Virus record (IMG/VR): IMGVR_UViG_2597489870_000005
DNA from: a virus
Taxonomy: Duplodnaviria > Heunggongvirae > Uroviricota > Caudoviricetes
DNA length: 45,486 nucleotides
Direction: 5' to 3' (one strand)
Shown: positions 1 through 45,486 of the stretch, one piece after another
Position numbering within the stretch: the stretch's first letter is position 1
How the letters are laid out: every line of letters starts with the position of its first letter
The notes under the pieces: generated by a model
What the model was told of the DNA's origin: nothing
What the model saw: the letters and a program-made list of their open reading frames with translations, nothing else
Database searches by the model: none
Translations under genes and position numbers: made by a program

Positions 1-585
1 CTATTCGATAATGGGTACTGTTGGCCATTCAATATCCGGTGCAGTTGTTGTATTAACACGGTTCAGCAACACCCGATATTTTTTCCAGGCTTCCAGCAAT
101 GAGGTTTCTTCCTCCGTTGCGATCTCCAGATCTACAGCATCCTGAAGTGGCGCTATATGCTCACTGGCTACCTGCATCAGGCTGTTTTTTGTTTCTTCCG
201 CCTCCCGGATCCGGAACAGTTTTTCTGCTTCCGTATCCTTCACCCAGGCTGTACCGTTCCACTTCTGATATTCCCCTTCCGGCGATAACCAGGTGACATT
301 TTCCGGTAACGAGCCAAGTTCAGAAATAAATAACGCGTCGCCGGAAGCCACGTCATAGACGGTTTTTCCCCGATGATCTTCAACGAGATGCCACGATGCC
401 TCATCACTGTTGAAAACAGCCACAAAGCCAGCCGGAATATCTGGTGGTGCAATATCGGTACTGTTTGCTGGCAGACCTGTATGAGGCGGAATATATGCGT
501 CACCTTCACCAATAAATTCATTAGTTCCGGCCAGCAGATTATAAATTTTTATGGTCCGTGCTTGTTCACTCATTCTGAATGCCAT
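1..585 (-). CDS. tfa: Tail fibre assembly protein Tfa
   Basis: 194-aa ORF matching recalled lambda Tfa over its full length (MAFRMSEQ...); start overlaps stf stop. Confidence 0.9.
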
Positions 586-3500
586 TATGCAAGCCTCACA
601 ATATAGTTAAATGCGATGTTTTTGACGGTGTTTTCCGCGTTACCCGCAGCGTTAACGGTGATGGTGTGTCCATGTGAGCCAATCGCAACGGAGTGCGTAT
701 GAGCACCAATACCGACAGTATGTGCATGTGCGCCTGCGCTTGCAGCAGTGCCGGACAGCGAGTGGGTATGAGCACCATCTGATGATGTCTTCCCTGCATT
801 ACGAGTCTGGCCACTACCGCTTGTTGTGCTCATAATCCCCGCGCTTGGATTTGAAATCGCGGTATAACCATTAGGGAAAATGCTCGTGTTCGTGCCACCA
901 AATGCACCGGAACTCTTGTGTTGGTGCGCGCCGGCACTATTTGCGGTCCCGCTAATACTATGGGTATGCGCCCCGGTGTTATTCGTGGATTTAGTGCCGT
1001 AATCAAACGACGATGTGGTTTTCGTCCCCAAATCAGTACTGGATGCGCTGGCGCTGTGGGTATGCGATTTTATGCCGTCCTGTTCCTGAGACAATACGGC
1101 ACGACCACTGGCGGGCTTGCCCTTAATCGTCCAGCCACGCATATCAGGGATCACGCCTGACGGATAAGCGGCTGCAAGTTTCGGGTAGGCAGATTTGTCA
1201 AAAGTCTGCCCCTGCATCAGGGCATAACCAGACGGAACGGTATCTGATGGCCACGGGATTGGTGCGCCGACTGGGTAGCTTTCTGGTGGAAGATTTTTCG
1301 AGGTATAAACTTCTGCCCAGTCTTCCTCAAAACCATAATCGTCTCTTGAAGAACGGTAGAACAGACCACCATTTCTGTAATGCGCCTTCATCTGCAAGGT
1401 CCGGCAACTTCCGACTCCGGTATAGAAGTTAACCAGAATATAGCTGTCGCCAGAGCGAGTGACATTGTAAGCGCCTGATTCGGCATTCCAGGGAACGCCC
1501 CCATCCGCATCGGCATACGTATCCGTTGCTCTTCTGGCAAAAGCAGCAACATGCGCAGCGGTTAAAGTGATATCAGTAGAACCATCAAACGAAACACCAG
1601 ATATTTTTATTGCTGTCTGAAGTTTCGTAGCTGTATCAGAATTTCCCTTAATCCCCTTAGGAGAATTAAGTGGTGTATTGATCGTCACTTCACCTGTTGC
1701 GTTATTTACTGCAAATGGTCGAAGACCGTTCCAGCCACCGTACTGGTCGCCTTTATCAGTCATGAGCAAGTAAGTATTTGCTCCATCATTTCGCCATATG
1801 ACACCGTAATCACCTGCAATCATTCTTAACGCGTTCTGACTACGGACAATAACTTCATCATTAGCGTAAATCTTATTTCCGCTAATGTCTGACTTACTCA
1901 AAACAGGATACGAACTATAAAATCCATTACCTTGTTTAAAATCTAAAATTAAATTTACCGCAACTGATTCAGAATAAGGATCAGTTGCGCCAAATTTATA
2001 AGTCGTTTCAGCAACAATATAATCAGAAGCAGGTGCAGTAACAGAGAGACCTTCTTCTAAAAAGACCTCTACGGGAAATGCCCCACCTTCTATATAGAAT
2101 ACTCTGTCTACGGTATCGCCTTTATTACTCATCAGAATGGAATGAATAGCGCGTTCCGATGATGAATAAGCCCAGAACATACCACAGGCATAGCTACCCC
2201 GGTCCGTCCAGCCGCCTGAGCAAACAAAACCATTAAACTCACAATTATTCATTCTGTGATTAGCTGAGCGACTTGGCGTTGAAATGACAACGCGGGATGC
2301 CCGATGGCTGTCATTCCTTTTTATCACTAACGGATAATATTTACCTTCCTGGACACCCGCCGGGGCATTTACCACAACGTATCGCATCCCCTTTTTCTGA
2401 TCCACTTCACCTTTGCTGTAAACATTAATGTTACTCAGGAAGCGATCCTTGTCGGGAATATCAGCACCGTTCTGGTCTTTCTGCAGACGTTTCTCTGCAT
2501 TGTCATAGGCTGCTTTTACTGCCTTTGGCGTTGCCGCCAGCGTTTCAGACGTACTGTTGGTCGCACTGCTGAGCTGTACTATCCCCTTTTTCGTCGTACT
2601 TGCATCCTCAAGCGCCACGGCGGATGCAATGTCCTCTGCCCGTTTAGCTGCTGTCTCGGCGCGCGTTGCCGCGGATTCCGCCGTACTTTTGCTCTGAGCT
2701 GCCGCCGTCGCACTGCCAGCAGCCTCTGTCGCCTTCGTGGATGCCGTCGTGGCGCTGCTCTTCGCTGCTGACGCTTGTCTGGTCGCCTCATCTTTTGAAG
2801 CAGACGCCGATGATGCCGATGACGCCGCCGAACTGGCTGACGATGCGGCAGCCGTTTTTGAGGATTCTGCGCCGGTTTCCGACGCTTTCGCGTTCGTTTC
2901 GGATGTCTTCGCTGCGGAAGCTGACCTCGCTGCTGCCGTGGCCTGTTCAGTGGCTTCGCCAGCCTTCGTTGTGGCTGTTGAAGCGGATGATGCGGCGCTT
3001 TCTGCCGACTTTCCGGCAGCGGTGGCACTGGCTGAGGCCTGCCCGGCATTTGTTGACGCGGCGCTGGCAGATGAGGCAGCCGCTGTTTTTGAGTCTGCTG
3101 CTGCGGAGGCACTCTGTGCTGCTGCCGTCTCAGAAGACTTAGCGTTCGTCTCGGACGTTTTTGCCGCCTTCGCGGAATTTGCTGCCGCCGTTGCCGAGGA
3201 AGCTGCGCTACTGGCGCTCGAGGATGCGTTCGTTTCTGATGATTTTGCCGCCTCTTTTGAAGCCGACGCATCCCGGGCTGAGGTGGCAGCTTCTGACGCT
3301 TTTGTAGTCGCGGTGGATGCAGAAGTGGCTGCTGATTGTTGTGACGCTGCAGCATTCGTTTCTGACGTTTTCGCGGCACTGGCACTGGTAGCTGCCGCGC
3401 TTTTTGAGGACTCTGCAGCGGCAGCACTTTTTTCCGCTTCAGTGGCCTTTGTTGATGCCGTTCCTGCGCTGGAAGACGCTGACTGAGCCGACGACGCGGC

Positions 3501-3983
3501 CTGTCCGGCTGACGTGCTGGCTGCGCGTGCTGAGCCTGCAGCATCAGTCGCATGGGTTGCCGCCTCACGGGCTGATGTGCTGGCATCGCTGGCTGACTTC
3601 TTCGCGGCTGCCGTGTTCTGTGCCACCGCGGACGCGTTACGCGCCACCTCTTCCACCATCAGTTCAAAACGGCGCAGTGCCTCAGGACGGGCATCATCCT
3701 CCGTCATGGCACCGAGAAAATCATTCAGCGTACCGGGTCGGGAATCTTCATACACGGTGATGGTCCCGGCATGTGACGGCGGGAATCCCTCCACCAACAG
3801 AATAACGCTGTACTGCCCGTACTCAACGTCCATGCTGTAACGCCCGGCTTCATCCGGATTTTCTGAGGCCAGCGTGTTCACCACCACCGTGGTGCTGTTA
3901 CGTTTTGCTTTCAGCTGGATTGTGCAGTTCTGTACCGGTTTTCCTGTGCCGTCTTTCAGTACACCTGAAATCTTTACTGCCAT
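585..3983 (-). CDS. stf: Side tail fibre protein Stf
   Basis: About 1132 aa from ATG at 3983 (track extends to a GTG at 3989); Ala/Ser-rich collagen-like region and C-terminal GAHTHS-type His repeats typical of lambdoid side tail fibres; followed by tfa. Confidence 0.85.
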
Positions 3984-3992
3984 ATTCACCCC

Positions 3993-44180: not shown

Positions 44181-44193
44181 TGGCGGTTTTTTC
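44172..44193 (+). terminator. Short hairpin with T-tract immediately upstream of xis
   Basis: Stem gccgcc/ggcggt with loop tgat, then T6; overlaps orf55 stop. Confidence 0.45.
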
Positions 44194-44219
44194 TTGCGTG
44201 TAATTGCGGAGACTTTGCG

Positions 44220-44438
44220 ATGTACTTGACACTTCAGGAGTGGAACGCACGCCAGCGACGCCCAAGAAGCCTTGAAACAGTTCGTCGATGGGTACGCGAG
44301 TGCAGGATATTCCCTCCTCCGGTTAAGGATGGAAGAGAGTATCTGTTCCACGAATCAGCGGTAAAGGTTGACTTAAATCGACCAGTAACAGGTAGCCTTT
44401 TGAAGAGGATCAGAAATGGGAAGAAGGCGAAGTCATGA
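44220..44438 (+). CDS. xis: Excisionase Xis
   Basis: 72-aa ORF matching recalled lambda Xis (MYLTLQEWNARQRRPRSLETVRRWVRECRIFPPPVKDGREYLFHESAVKVDLNRP...). Confidence 0.95.
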   Translation: MYLTLQEWNARQRRPRSLETVRRWVRECRIFPPPVKDGREYLFHESAVKVDLNRPVTGSLLKRIRNGKKAKS

Positions 44439-45486
44439 GCGCCGGGATTTACCCCCTAACCTTTATATAAGAAACAATGGATATTACTGCTACAGGGACC
44501 CAAGGACGGGTAAAGAGTTTGGATTAGGCAGAGACAGGCGAATCGCAATCACTGAAGCCATACAGGCCAACATTGAGTTATTTTCAGGACACAAACACAA
44601 GCCTCTGACAGCGAGAATCAACAGTGATAATTCCGTTACGTTACATTCATGGCTTGATCGCTACGAAAAAATCTTGGCCAGCAGAGGAATCAAGCAGAAG
44701 ACACTCATAAATTACATGAGCAAAATTAAAGCAATAAGGAGGGGTCTGCCTGATGCTCCACTTGAAGACATCACCACAAAAGAAATTGCGGCAATGCTCA
44801 ATGGATACATAGACGAGGGCAAGGCGGCGTCAGCCAAGTTAATCAGATCAACACTGAGCGATGCATTCCGAGAGGCAATAGCTGAAGGCCATATAACAAC
44901 AAACCCTGTCGCTGCCACTCGCGCAGCAAAATCAGAGGTAAGGAGATCAAGACTTACGGCTGACGAATACCTGAAAATTTATCAAGCAGCAGAATCATCA
45001 CCATGTTGGCTCAGACTTGCAATGGAACTGGCTGTTGTTACCGGGCAACGAGTTGGTGATTTATGCGAAATGAAGTGGTCTGATATCGTAGATGGATATC
45101 TTTATGTCGAGCAAAGCAAAACAGGCGTAAAAATTGCCATCCCAACAACATTGCATGTTGATGCTCTCGGGATATCAATGAAGGAAACACTTGATAAATG
45201 CAAAGAGATTCTTGGCGGAGAAACCATAATTGCATCTACTCGTCGTGAACCGCTTTCATCCGGCACAGTATCAAGGTATTTTATGCGCGCACGAAAAGCA
45301 TCAGGTCTTTCCTTCGAAGGGGATCCGCCTACCTTTCACGAGTTGCGCAGTTTGTCTGCAAGACTCTATGAGAAGCAGATAAGCGATAAGTTTGCTCAAC
45401 ATCTTCTCGGGCATAAGTCGGACACCATGGCATCACAGTATCGTGATGACAGAGGCAGGGAGTGGGACAAAATTGAAATCAAATAA
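44416..45486 (+). CDS. int: Tyrosine integrase Int (lambda type)
   Basis: 356-aa ORF matching recalled lambda Int over its length; overlaps xis end; stop is the last codon of the window. Confidence 0.97.
   Translation: MGRRRSHERRDLPPNLYIRNNGYYCYRDPRTGKEFGLGRDRRIAITEAIQANIELFSGHKHKPLTARINSDNSVTLHSWLDRYEKILASRGIKQKTLINYMSKIKAIRRGLPDAPLEDITTKEIAAMLNGYIDEGKAASAKLIRSTLSDAFREAIAEGHITTNPVAATRAAKSEVRRSRLTADEYLKIYQAAESSPCWLRLAMELAVVTGQRVGDLCEMKWSDIVDGYLYVEQSKTGVKIAIPTTLHVDALGISMKETLDKCKEILGGETIIASTRREPLSSGTVSRYFMRARKASGLSFEGDPPTFHELRSLSARLYEKQISDKFAQHLLGHKSDTMASQYRDDRGREWDKIEIK

Follow-up and report, generated by a model that had tools for sequence, protein, structure and literature searches.

We suggest that the stretch of 45,486 nucleotides analysed here (IMG/VR virus record IMGVR_UViG_2597489870_000005, hereafter the window) is, very probably, a single lambdoid prophage genome at the lambda site, composed of a few large blocks that differ in their closest relatives. 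The window is identical (100%, megablast) to positions 862243-907728, minus strand, of the enterotoxigenic Escherichia coli (ETEC) H10407 record NC_017633.1, and a window coordinate (w) corresponds to 907729 minus the record coordinate. The blocks are an integration and pL arm of the lambda/mEp332 type, a composite 21/P22/HK620 immunity region, a lambda/21 O-P-ren-ninB module, a mEp332/434/HK97 nin region, a DLP12 rusA-Q-nmpC-S-R cassette, and an intact Rac late region leading into a lambda-like tail tip and mosaic fibres. The closest relative changes stepwise at discrete points, from about 100% identity to less than 70% or to no match. An initial annotation, made from the letters of the sequence and without database searches, had described the window as a mosaic of lambda-, P22-, DLP12/21- and Rac-type DNA, and both BLASTN and the identities calculated per bin resolved blocks with different closest relatives. 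The mosaicism of lambdoid phages, their exchange of DNA with DLP12, Rac and Qin, and the location of junctions at gene boundaries are long established.

The RefSeq annotation of the locus contains 63 coding sequences (CDS) in the canonical lambdoid order, from int, beside ybhC, through tfa. Int-xis, the recombination genes, N, the repressor gene, cro, cII, O-P and nin were found in the order of lambdoid phages, followed, also as expected, by Q and the lysis, packaging, head, tail and fibre genes. The 15-bp lambda att core GCTTTTTTATACTAA is present in exactly two copies in the surrounding 50 kb, where none would be expected by chance, one of them 74 bp past int and the other about 2 kb past tfa, immediately before ybhB. 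The prophage sits between ybhC and ybhB, with Int, Xis and both cores as in lambda-type integration, and the two flanking cores give it a size of about 47.6 kb. No tRNA genes, as markers of integration or cargo, were found in the window, which extends from int to tfa, so that the far end of the prophage, with a gene for a MASE4-GGDEF diguanylate cyclase, falls outside it. This gene, dgcX (record positions 907802-909133), is located between tfa and the second att core and is thus prophage cargo; it was reported earlier as adjoining a prophage at attB in H10407 (Richter et al. 2014, PMC4287979).

Both halves of the window (w1-25000 and w22000-45486) were searched with megablast for collinear relatives among 50,697 phage records and 5,426 complete E. 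coli genomes. None of the phage records gave a single collinear match to the whole window, the best being SPF_0923 for w1-25000 (86% coverage, 97.8% identity) and mEp332 for w22000-45486 (60% coverage, 98.4% identity). The mosaic claim therefore survives its own test, since the initial annotation had named one known phage collinear with the entire window as the observation that would speak against it, and no phage record covers the window. Among the complete genomes, end-to-end matches were limited to H10407 and SEC470, which is identical in sequence to H10407 and presumably the same genome; at least 80% of the left half was present in 671 E. coli genomes and at least 80% of the right half in 9. 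An independent complete genome, that of strain WP8-S18-CRE-02, carries a sister prophage of matching architecture at the same ybhC site, in the order int ... imm ... O-P ... rusA-Q ... essD-rrrD-rzpD-trkG-ParB-TAGT-terS-terL. That an unrelated strain has this sister prophage at the lambda site indicates that the combination of blocks predates H10407, and the exchanges that gave rise to it probably took place before the arrival of the prophage in this strain.

The module map was obtained by BLASTN against lambda, P22, 21, HK97, the K-12 prophages DLP12 and Rac, mEp332, SPF_0923 and 434B, followed by the calculation of identity per 200-bp bin. In total, 15,996 bp aligned to lambda, 13,973 bp of them at an identity of at least 90%, a level of homology that would permit exchange. 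The window shares with lambda (NC_001416) its gene order and att site, int-xis, the pL operon, ral, O-P-ren-ninB, the Rz core and L-K-I-J, whereas it differs in immunity, N and the nut sites, Q, holin, endolysin, terminase, head, tail shaft, the C-terminus of J and the b region; trkG, nmpC and, just outside the window, dgcX are cargo with no lambda counterpart. Among cultured phages, mEp332 (PV340541) is the closest single relative of the early half; it shares w39262-45486 at 98.7% identity (100% over w41600-44400) and w28237-35832 at 98%, and has the same DLP12-type Q-nmpC-lysis cassette, dam-ninE-ninX, lambda-type O-P and int, and similar J, lom, stf and tfa genes. However, mEp332 has its own lambda-type cos packaging, head and tail-shaft genes, its own immunity region with a lambda-like cI of 237 aa, and bor-side DNA after Rz, where the window has trkG; it lacks the insertion found after ral in the window, and its O gene and origin are intact.

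The cassette comprising Q and the lysis genes and the adjoining Rz gene contain the following features (window coordinates, here and below):

32225-32314, minus strand: ybcO fragment, DLP12-type
31866-32228, minus strand: rusA, with ylcG, DLP12-type
31260-31643, minus strand: quuD (Q), PF06530
29973-31070, plus strand: porin gene nmpC, intact, DLP12-type
29185-29400, minus strand: pinholin gene essD, DLP12-type
28688-29185, minus strand: endolysin gene rrrD, DLP12-type
28227-28691, minus strand: Rz with embedded Rz1 (28286-28471), at the DLP12/Rac junction

The block w28688-32314 is collinear with K-12 DLP12, at 98.1-98.7% identity overall and 100% in most 200-bp bins. Phage 21 matches only S-R-Rz (w28237-29401, 91.6%), and the late control region of 21 was not found, its Q region giving no nucleotide match in the window with BLASTN. 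The rusA-ylcG-Q-nmpC-S21-R21 genes, initially described as DLP12/21-type, are thus of the DLP12 type, but their resemblance to 21 does not extend beyond the lysis genes. In K-12 DLP12 and in 434B, nmpC is interrupted by IS5, whereas it is intact in the window, where a strong terminator-like hairpin follows it (w31209-31226). Furthermore, the K-12 DLP12 block runs on to borD, whereas that of the window ends inside Rz and is followed by Rac-type DNA. The capture of a DLP12 segment by 434B, in which the Q, late-promoter and lysis region was replaced in the laboratory, shows that this block moves as a unit (Feiss et al. 2022, PMC9119081).

A seven-way alignment showed that a near-identical core, about 380 bp long, is common to all the Rz alleles. 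The sequence upstream of the start of Rz agrees with DLP12, 21 and mEp332, with an endolysin of the R21 type, and from about w28295 (7-9 bp before the Rz1 stop codon) the window agrees with Rac and SPF_0923, over roughly the final 23 codons of Rz and on into trkG. The Rz1 C-terminus accordingly reads ...SGNDW, as in RzoR of Rac, whereas lambda Rz1 ends in ...SERG, so the label of lambda-type given to Rz/Rz1 applies to the core, which is common to all lambdoid Rz genes, but not to Rz1 and the Rz C-terminus, which are Rac-type. Alignment breakpoints recur at the same two Rz positions across complete genomes, and the core is a shared linker between alternative flanks. The location of the join between the early and late halves inside this conserved core points to homologous recombination rather than to a terminator boundary.

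Beyond Rz, the late genes are as follows, together with a ParB-like gene and a glycosyltransferase gene considered below:

26632-28089, minus strand: trkG, potassium transporter
23493-24587, minus strand: terS, Terminase_2
22211-23512, minus strand: terL, T4-type large terminase, Terminase_6N/6C
20802-22208, minus strand: portal gene, DUF4055
17599-18738, minus strand: capsid protein gene, Pfam P22_CoatProtein
14840-15801, minus strand: tail-tube gene
14330-14689, minus strand: ydaY, one of the tail-chaperone genes
10623-13856, minus strand: tape-measure gene, accompanied by an M-like gene
10292-24800, minus strand: extent of the Rac-type tail-shaft, head and packaging genes, which also include connector genes, a scaffold gene, a gene for a MuF-like protein and an open reading frame (ORF) of 69 aa

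Every 200-bp bin of w10292-24800 is 98-100% identical to SPF_0923, and the whole late block w5719-28428 is 98% identical to this record (about 100% over w10200-28400), whereas BLASTN gave no nucleotide match to lambda over w10315-28236. The Nu1/A terminase, B portal and E capsid of lambda were not found, their places being taken by proteins of the Terminase_2, Terminase_6N/6C, DUF4055 and P22_CoatProtein families. Two segments of K-12 Rac align to the window, one with 99.7% identity over w26241-28671 (rzpR-rzoR-trkG-ynaK) and the other with 99.9% over w12922-14681 (from ydaY to the start of the tape-measure gene ynaA), and the K-12 lomR fragment is 98.6% identical to the window. These alignments abut exactly, with a junction microhomology of at most 2 nt, indicating that K-12 Rac can be derived from this late region by removing w14682-26240 (11.6 kb) and w4446-12921 (8.5 kb), the deletion points being at 16630|16631 and 18388|18389 of the K-12 Rac sequence analysed. 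The two deletions explain ynaK, ydaY, ynaA and lomR as the remnants of ParB-like, tail-chaperone, tape-measure and lom genes, respectively.

The same late module was found in vB_EcoS-666R9 behind a complete Rac early region (IntR, YdaQ, RalR, RecT, RecE, RacC, Kil and SieB). SPF_0923 (ON032529.1) is labelled as a Salmonella phage, starts inside Rz and ends in uspF-ompN-ydbK, the genes flanking Rac in E. coli; this record would seem to hold part of an E. coli Rac-site prophage together with host DNA rather than a complete Salmonella phage genome. The lom, stf and tfa genes of Rac, 666R9 and SPF_0923 are related to those of the window, but Rac has IntR at ttcA, a RecET-RacC-KilR early region and RacR immunity, whereas the window has lambda int and att, Red and 21/P22 immunity.

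The identification of trkG as Rac-type was confirmed, with 100% identity to K-12 Rac trkG in 200-bp bins. The packaging and head genes, which the initial annotation had listed as a separate non-lambda module, are indeed not those of lambda, with a capsid of the P22 coat family and a T4-type terL, but they are not separate from the block containing trkG. Judging from the alignments, trkG, the 3' end of Rz, the head and packaging genes, the tail shaft and the tape-measure gene are one Rac-type late block, of which the tail tip is probably also part, and a list of modules that separates them over-counts the independent donors. The GC content of trkG is low (38.6% over w27001-28000, versus about 48% in its neighbours) and the gene has a terminator-like hairpin of its own (w26522-26545), features that fit trkG as cargo acquired from outside, within a Rac-type late operon. 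The K-12 DLP12 site (argU|envY) and the Rac site (ttcA|uspF) are both empty in H10407. The extracts showing the empty sites are positions 44209-45080 (DLP12 region) and 8340-9886 (Rac region) of the analysed H10407 chromosome pieces, and, in these site regions, the trkG and DLP12-type Q-nmpC-lysis genes of H10407 were seen to be confined to the lambda-site prophage.

The remaining late genes are those of the tail tip and of the side tail fibres:

9594-10292, minus strand: L, lambda-type
8845-9588, minus strand: K, lambda-type
8276-8848, minus strand: I, lambda-type
4718-8215, minus strand: J, lambda-type
4048-4647, minus strand: lom, fibre region
585-3983, minus strand: stf, fibre region
1-585, minus strand: tfa, fibre region

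The assignment of the tail tip genes to the lambda type was borne out, L-K-I-J (w5719-10314) being 94.6% identical to lambda 13407-18002; the identity to phage 21 is 94.8%, and the closest reference varies by bin. Over its C-terminal part, of about 1 kb (w4718-5719), J departs from lambda and has mEp332 as its closest reference. SPF_0923 remains collinear with the window from M into L; this join therefore also occurs in Rac-site prophages, predates the H10407 prophage and is not specific to it. Over w1-4647, the closest reference switches from one 200-bp bin to another, between mEp332 (96-100%), Rac stfR/tfaR (87-98%) and lambda (87-93%), and a central block of stf (w1601-2400) is only about 60% identical to any reference. 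A strong terminator-like hairpin was observed after lom (w4000-4021).

The early and late halves differ in their closest relative (mEp332-like versus a Rac-site prophage), and in vB_EcoS-666R9 the late half is preceded by a Rac integrase, as would be expected if the window comprised two adjacent elements, a lambda-like prophage and a Rac-like remnant, in tandem or nested. However, a single integrase and excisionase and one lambda att pair serve the whole 47.6 kb, there is no second set of immunity, replication, lysis or packaging genes, the join between the halves falls within one intact Rz/Rz1 reading frame, and the gene order is that of one lambdoid genome. We therefore consider two elements very unlikely. 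Still less credence can be given to an assembly artefact, in which the lambdoid prophages of H10407 would have been collapsed or mis-joined across repeats such as Rz and the nin genes. The H10407 record does contain three places matching parts of the window, and the Rz core is a near-identical repeat among prophages, but the same order at the same site in the independent genome of WP8-S18-CRE-02 shows that the joins did not arise in assembly; the 9 and 671 genomes covering at least 80% of the right and left halves, respectively, and the presence of one att pair, one int and no duplicated functions also argue against such an artefact. Equally remote is vertical divergence, at uneven rates along one lineage and with no module exchange, for, although the similarity of L-K-I-J to several phages is graded (92-100%) rather than all-or-none, neighbouring blocks show about 100% identity to DLP12 and to Rac, references unrelated to each other, and no nucleotide similarity to lambda could be detected in these blocks; moreover, the protein families of the capsid, terminase and endolysin are not those of lambda, and identity shifts abruptly, within a few bases.

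The reading of the window as one mosaic genome also accounts for its early regions, the most composite of which is the immunity region (w35832-38348 on the module map):

37746-38327, minus strand: sieB, P22-like
37457-37729, plus strand: N, 90 aa, Pfam N_peptide (PF25694)
37308-37351, plus strand: nutL, boxB CCCGCCGAAAUGCGGG
36495-37145, plus strand: repressor gene, 216 aa, 21/P22-type
36415-36494: OR, nearly identical in the window, P22 and 21
36229-36414, minus strand: cro, 21/P22-type
36177-36222, minus strand: nutR, boxB CCCGCCGAAAUGCGGG
35842-36120, minus strand: c1, P22-type

In the initial annotation, c2/cro/c1 were considered to be P22-type. This holds specifically for c1 (89.1% amino-acid identity to P22, 52% to lambda and none to 21, the cII gene of which has no match in the window), but the repressor and Cro are at least as close to 21. 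The repressor is 98.4% identical to that of 21 (over the 190 aa annotated in 21), 93.1% to that of P22 and 35% to that of lambda, and the corresponding values for Cro are 96.7% (21), 95.1% (P22) and none (lambda). OR and OL differ by 0-3 bases among the window, P22 and 21, and the repressor, Cro and operators fit an assignment to the imm21/immP22 group. SieB is 82.7% identical to its P22 counterpart and 18% to that of lambda, the gene is absent from 21, and the sieB region (w37667-38721) is 85.7% identical to P22 at the nucleotide level. In the deposited phage 21 sequence (OL657228, 34255-34905), cI is annotated as 190 aa; the DNA upstream of it in 21 can be aligned, in frame and back to the same ATG, with codons 1-26 of the 216-aa repressor gene of the window, and the start codon deposited for 21 cI may therefore lie too far downstream.

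The nut boxes had been described as matching the P22-type immunity genes. NutL and nutR do agree with each other, with a conserved boxA and the same boxB, but this boxB and the N motif are of the HK620 type. A P22 or 21 boxB was ruled out by alignment, the P22 boxB being GCGCUGACAAAGCGC where the window has CCCGCCGAAAUGCGGG. The arginine-rich motif of N (DNARNRRRARRQAQREQA, versus GNAKTRRHERRRKLAIER in P22) matches none of those of lambda, 21 and P22, and N appears as a three-part mosaic consisting of this motif, 28 central residues identical to N21 and a C-terminus similar to P22 gp24. The segment w37290-37570, containing nutL and the 5' part of N with the arginine-rich motif, is 98-99% identical to HK620, HK140, HK630, CUS-3, mEpX2 and N7 (98.2% over 281 bp for HK620 and 98.6% for N7), indicating that this N/nut type is already known. 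The HK620-type phages differ from the window in having other repressors and virion genes that are mostly P22-like or HK97-like. RNA folding yielded the boxB hairpins, and the z-scores of the whole segments were unremarkable (-0.6 and -1.2), as expected for short hairpins. The whole immunity block is present at an identity of at least 99% in other E. coli prophages, and, of the cultured phages, N7 comes closest to it (93% identity, over 70% of the block).

The integration arm and the pL operon contain the following features:

44013-45486, plus strand: integration module, with a small ORF, xis (44220-44438) and int (44416-45486)
43169-43771, minus strand: ORF of 200 aa, inside a 972-bp segment (w42971-43942) in place of lambda ea8.5/ea22
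39446-42958, plus strand: pL operon, with ea10, cIII, kil, gam, bet, exo, orf60a, orf63, an orf61-like gene and a TraR-like gene
38752-39272, plus strand: 522-bp insertion after ral, with an ORF of 149 aa (38801-39250) and a terminator-like hairpin of its own
38541-38741, plus strand: ral, 98.5% amino-acid identity to lambda and 21

Int-xis (w43943-45486) is 98.4% identical to lambda 27812-29355 and 98.2% to HK97, the pL operon (w39262-42970) is 97.5% identical to lambda 30380-34087 and 98.7-100% to mEp332, and the ral region (w38348-38771) is 96.5% identical to lambda, with Ral at 78% amino-acid identity to P22. With nucleotide identities of 96.5-98.4%, the lambda-type character initially attributed to int-xis, exo-bet-gam-kil-cIII-ea10 and ral is well founded. 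Two segments of this arm do not belong to lambda. The segment w42971-43942 has no lambda match and is 100% identical to mEp332 and 98-99% to 434B; its reverse-strand ORF corresponds to phrog_1416 (unknown function) and is flanked by hairpins at w43111-43134 and w43943-43962, the latter coinciding exactly with the resumption of lambda homology. The post-ral insertion is bracketed by a GGCCTTTATTTTT(T)GGC repeat, has hairpins around it at w38730-38751 and w39255-39272, and is not present in lambda, 21, mEp332 or the sister prophage of WP8-S18-CRE-02; the product of its ORF has hydrophobic stretches and corresponds to phrog_3054 (unknown function). Pfam gave no match for either of these cargo ORFs, and a role in defence was considered for both and for sieB, with nothing convincing from PADLOC and nothing from Pfam.

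The replication module and the nin region are arranged as follows:

33990-35832, minus strand: ren, P (34277-34978) and O (34975-35807, frameshifted) with the origin (ori)
32952-33479, minus strand: dam-type N6-adenine methyltransferase gene, within the nin region
32435-33916, minus strand: nin region, with ninX (32435-32776), ninE (32779-32955) and ninB (33476-33916)

The replication module, including ninB (w33476-35832), is 97-100% identical to lambda and 21, and the O-P-ren-ninB genes, named as lambda-type in the initial annotation, proved to be lambda/21-type at 97-99%. However, O, listed there as an ordinary gene, is a pseudogene. A 67-bp deletion between ori iterons 1 and 4, at w35460|35461, frameshifts O and leaves a single iteron (about w35441-35460), three of the four having been lost, so that the replication module is not intact. 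The O gene of the sister prophage in WP8-S18-CRE-02 is intact (900 nt), and the lesion is therefore specific to H10407. Given the frameshift in O and the loss of three iterons, the H10407 prophage is probably replication-defective and unable to replicate on its own. The lambda match ends exactly at the ninB stop codon (w33476), and the nin region is closest to mEp332 (98-100%), 434B (97-98%) and HK97 (97.1% over w32782-33928), with P22 at 82% for ninE/ninX. The dam methylase gene and ninX had been overlooked initially, as had the post-ral insertion and the reverse-strand ORF that replaces ea8.5/ea22. The ybcO-like gene is a 3' fragment. In the tail-tube gene, a run of eight A residues (A8, about w14889-14896), versus A9 in the intact relative SPF_0923, alters the frame over about the last 19 codons, which could reflect real decay, a slippery site or a sequencing error; the other late genes are all open in the RefSeq annotation.

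We compared 22 junctions, taken from the ends of the BLAST alignments, with the ends of the RefSeq CDS and with the stronger terminator-like hairpins, using a cut-off of 25 bp. Eleven were within this distance of a CDS end (2.4 expected by chance) and five of a terminator-like hairpin (0.7 expected), and 13 met one or the other (2.8 expected), a number reached by none of 5,000 random sets. The clear positives were the 4-bp ninB/dam overlap at w33476, the ninE stop codon, the M/L overlap and the cII-O spacer, and the junctions near hairpins were those at w43943, w44172 and w39255. The remaining nine junctions were near neither. Seven of them interrupt genes, stf containing three and lom, J, Rz and N a single one apiece, and the other two fall between boxA and boxB of both nut sites. 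The statement that module junctions coincide with terminators or with start/stop overlaps thus describes an enrichment, but a tendency rather than a rule.

Lambdoid phages, co-infecting or resident, would have swapped the blocks through homologous recombination at short conserved stretches shared by differently equipped phages, for which the Rz core, ral, the cII-O spacer and ninB/ninE are candidates, catalysed by RecA of the host or by the Red/RecT-type recombinase of the phage itself. A minority of the joins, namely the truncation of ybcO and the cargo insertions after ral and in place of ea8.5/ea22, may be illegitimate. Selection may have retained those recombinants in which a protein is paired with its own site, as for N and boxB, the repressor and Cro with their operators, Q and the late promoter, the terminase with the head genes, and Int with att. 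The copy in H10407 would since have begun to decay, through the frameshift in O, the loss of iterons and the homopolymer frameshift in the tail-tube gene. Lambda has been shown to gain DNA from DLP12, Rac and Qin by relaxed homologous recombination dependent on RecA and on Red-beta (De Paepe et al. 2014, PMC3945230).

Several points weigh against this reconstruction. We infer the recombination mechanism and the order of events from sequence patterns only, and the defectiveness of the prophage in the same manner. The change in the tail-tube gene, limited to about the last 19 codons, could be tolerable or a sequencing error. The exchanges did not involve the DLP12 and Rac prophages of the present H10407 genome, since both sites are empty in this strain. 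Finally, the set of junctions was hand-picked from BLAST ends against chosen references, the junction at w32314 is circular, since the end of the annotated gene fragment is itself the end of the homology, and the terminator calls are consensus matches only.

Between trkG and terS, just upstream of the terminase genes, the Rac-type block contains two genes overlapping by 8 bp:

25703-26494, minus strand: ParB-like gene, 263 aa, PF02195 (ParB_N)
24778-25710, minus strand: TAGT-family glycosyltransferase gene, 310 aa, PF20691 (E = 3.4e-35), phrog_842

K-12 ynaK is an N-terminal remnant of the ParB-like gene. With tblastn and neighbourhood look-ups, the pair was found upstream of the terminase in all seven loci examined, the window and six others (Lactobacillus phi jlb1, the haloarchaeal virus HHTV-2 of Haloarcula, Nocardia NTR1 and three metagenomic or genomic contigs), so that uncultured proteobacterial phages also carry it. 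The start/stop overlap of the two genes is 4-26 bp in all six of the other loci, and in five the pair is directly upstream of the terminase, with eight small ORFs intervening in HHTV-2. Three terminase families are represented across these loci, and the partner proteins are full-length homologues with 31-49% identity. The TAGT family has at least 8,000 members, and its DDD motif (D102-D103-D104) is invariant. The structural model of the glycosyltransferase is confident in its N-terminal half and poorly predicted in its C-terminal half, and the top fold matches were GT-A glycosyltransferases, at TM-scores of only 0.3-0.4. A PDB sequence search with the TAGT-like protein gave no match, and with the ParB-like protein it returned only ParB/Noc N-terminal domains.

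ParB-fold proteins have been linked to the DNA-modification enzymes of phages (PMC8256090, PMC13229309), and TAGT is the second glucosyltransferase of T6-like phages (PMC13390438). No TET/JBP dioxygenase, which in TET/JBP-associated DNA glycosylation systems provides the hydroxymethyl acceptor, usually alongside a C5-methyltransferase, was found in the prophage or in the six other neighbourhoods examined, and a ParB-TAGT pair free of dioxygenase is not described in PMC13229309 or PMC12704722, two papers on ParB-fold proteins. We therefore raise, tentatively and as a proposal that is more doubtful than not, the idea that the pair, as translationally coupled genes, might be a self-contained, dioxygenase-independent glycosylation system coupled to packaging, in which the ParB-fold partner would load or activate the GT-A enzyme, with phage DNA, or else a virion or packaging protein, as the target. 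Such a system would be analogous to the recently described ParB-dependent thymidine dioxygenases of phages, but with no known acceptor base in unmodified DNA.

The element is thus an ordinary, partly decayed lambdoid prophage in a published genome, and in itself it adds little scientifically. It can nevertheless serve as an annotation reference, since the intact forms of K-12 ynaK, ydaY, ynaA, lomR and rzpR (Rac) and of nmpC (DLP12) are present in one contiguous genome with mostly open reading frames, and it supplies the exact endpoints of the deletions in K-12 Rac. In H10407, trkG, nmpC and dgcX should be regarded as prophage cargo, and the over-simple P22-type label should be replaced by that of a composite 21/P22/HK620 immunity and antitermination unit. 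The ParB-TAGT pair is the only item that might open a new question.

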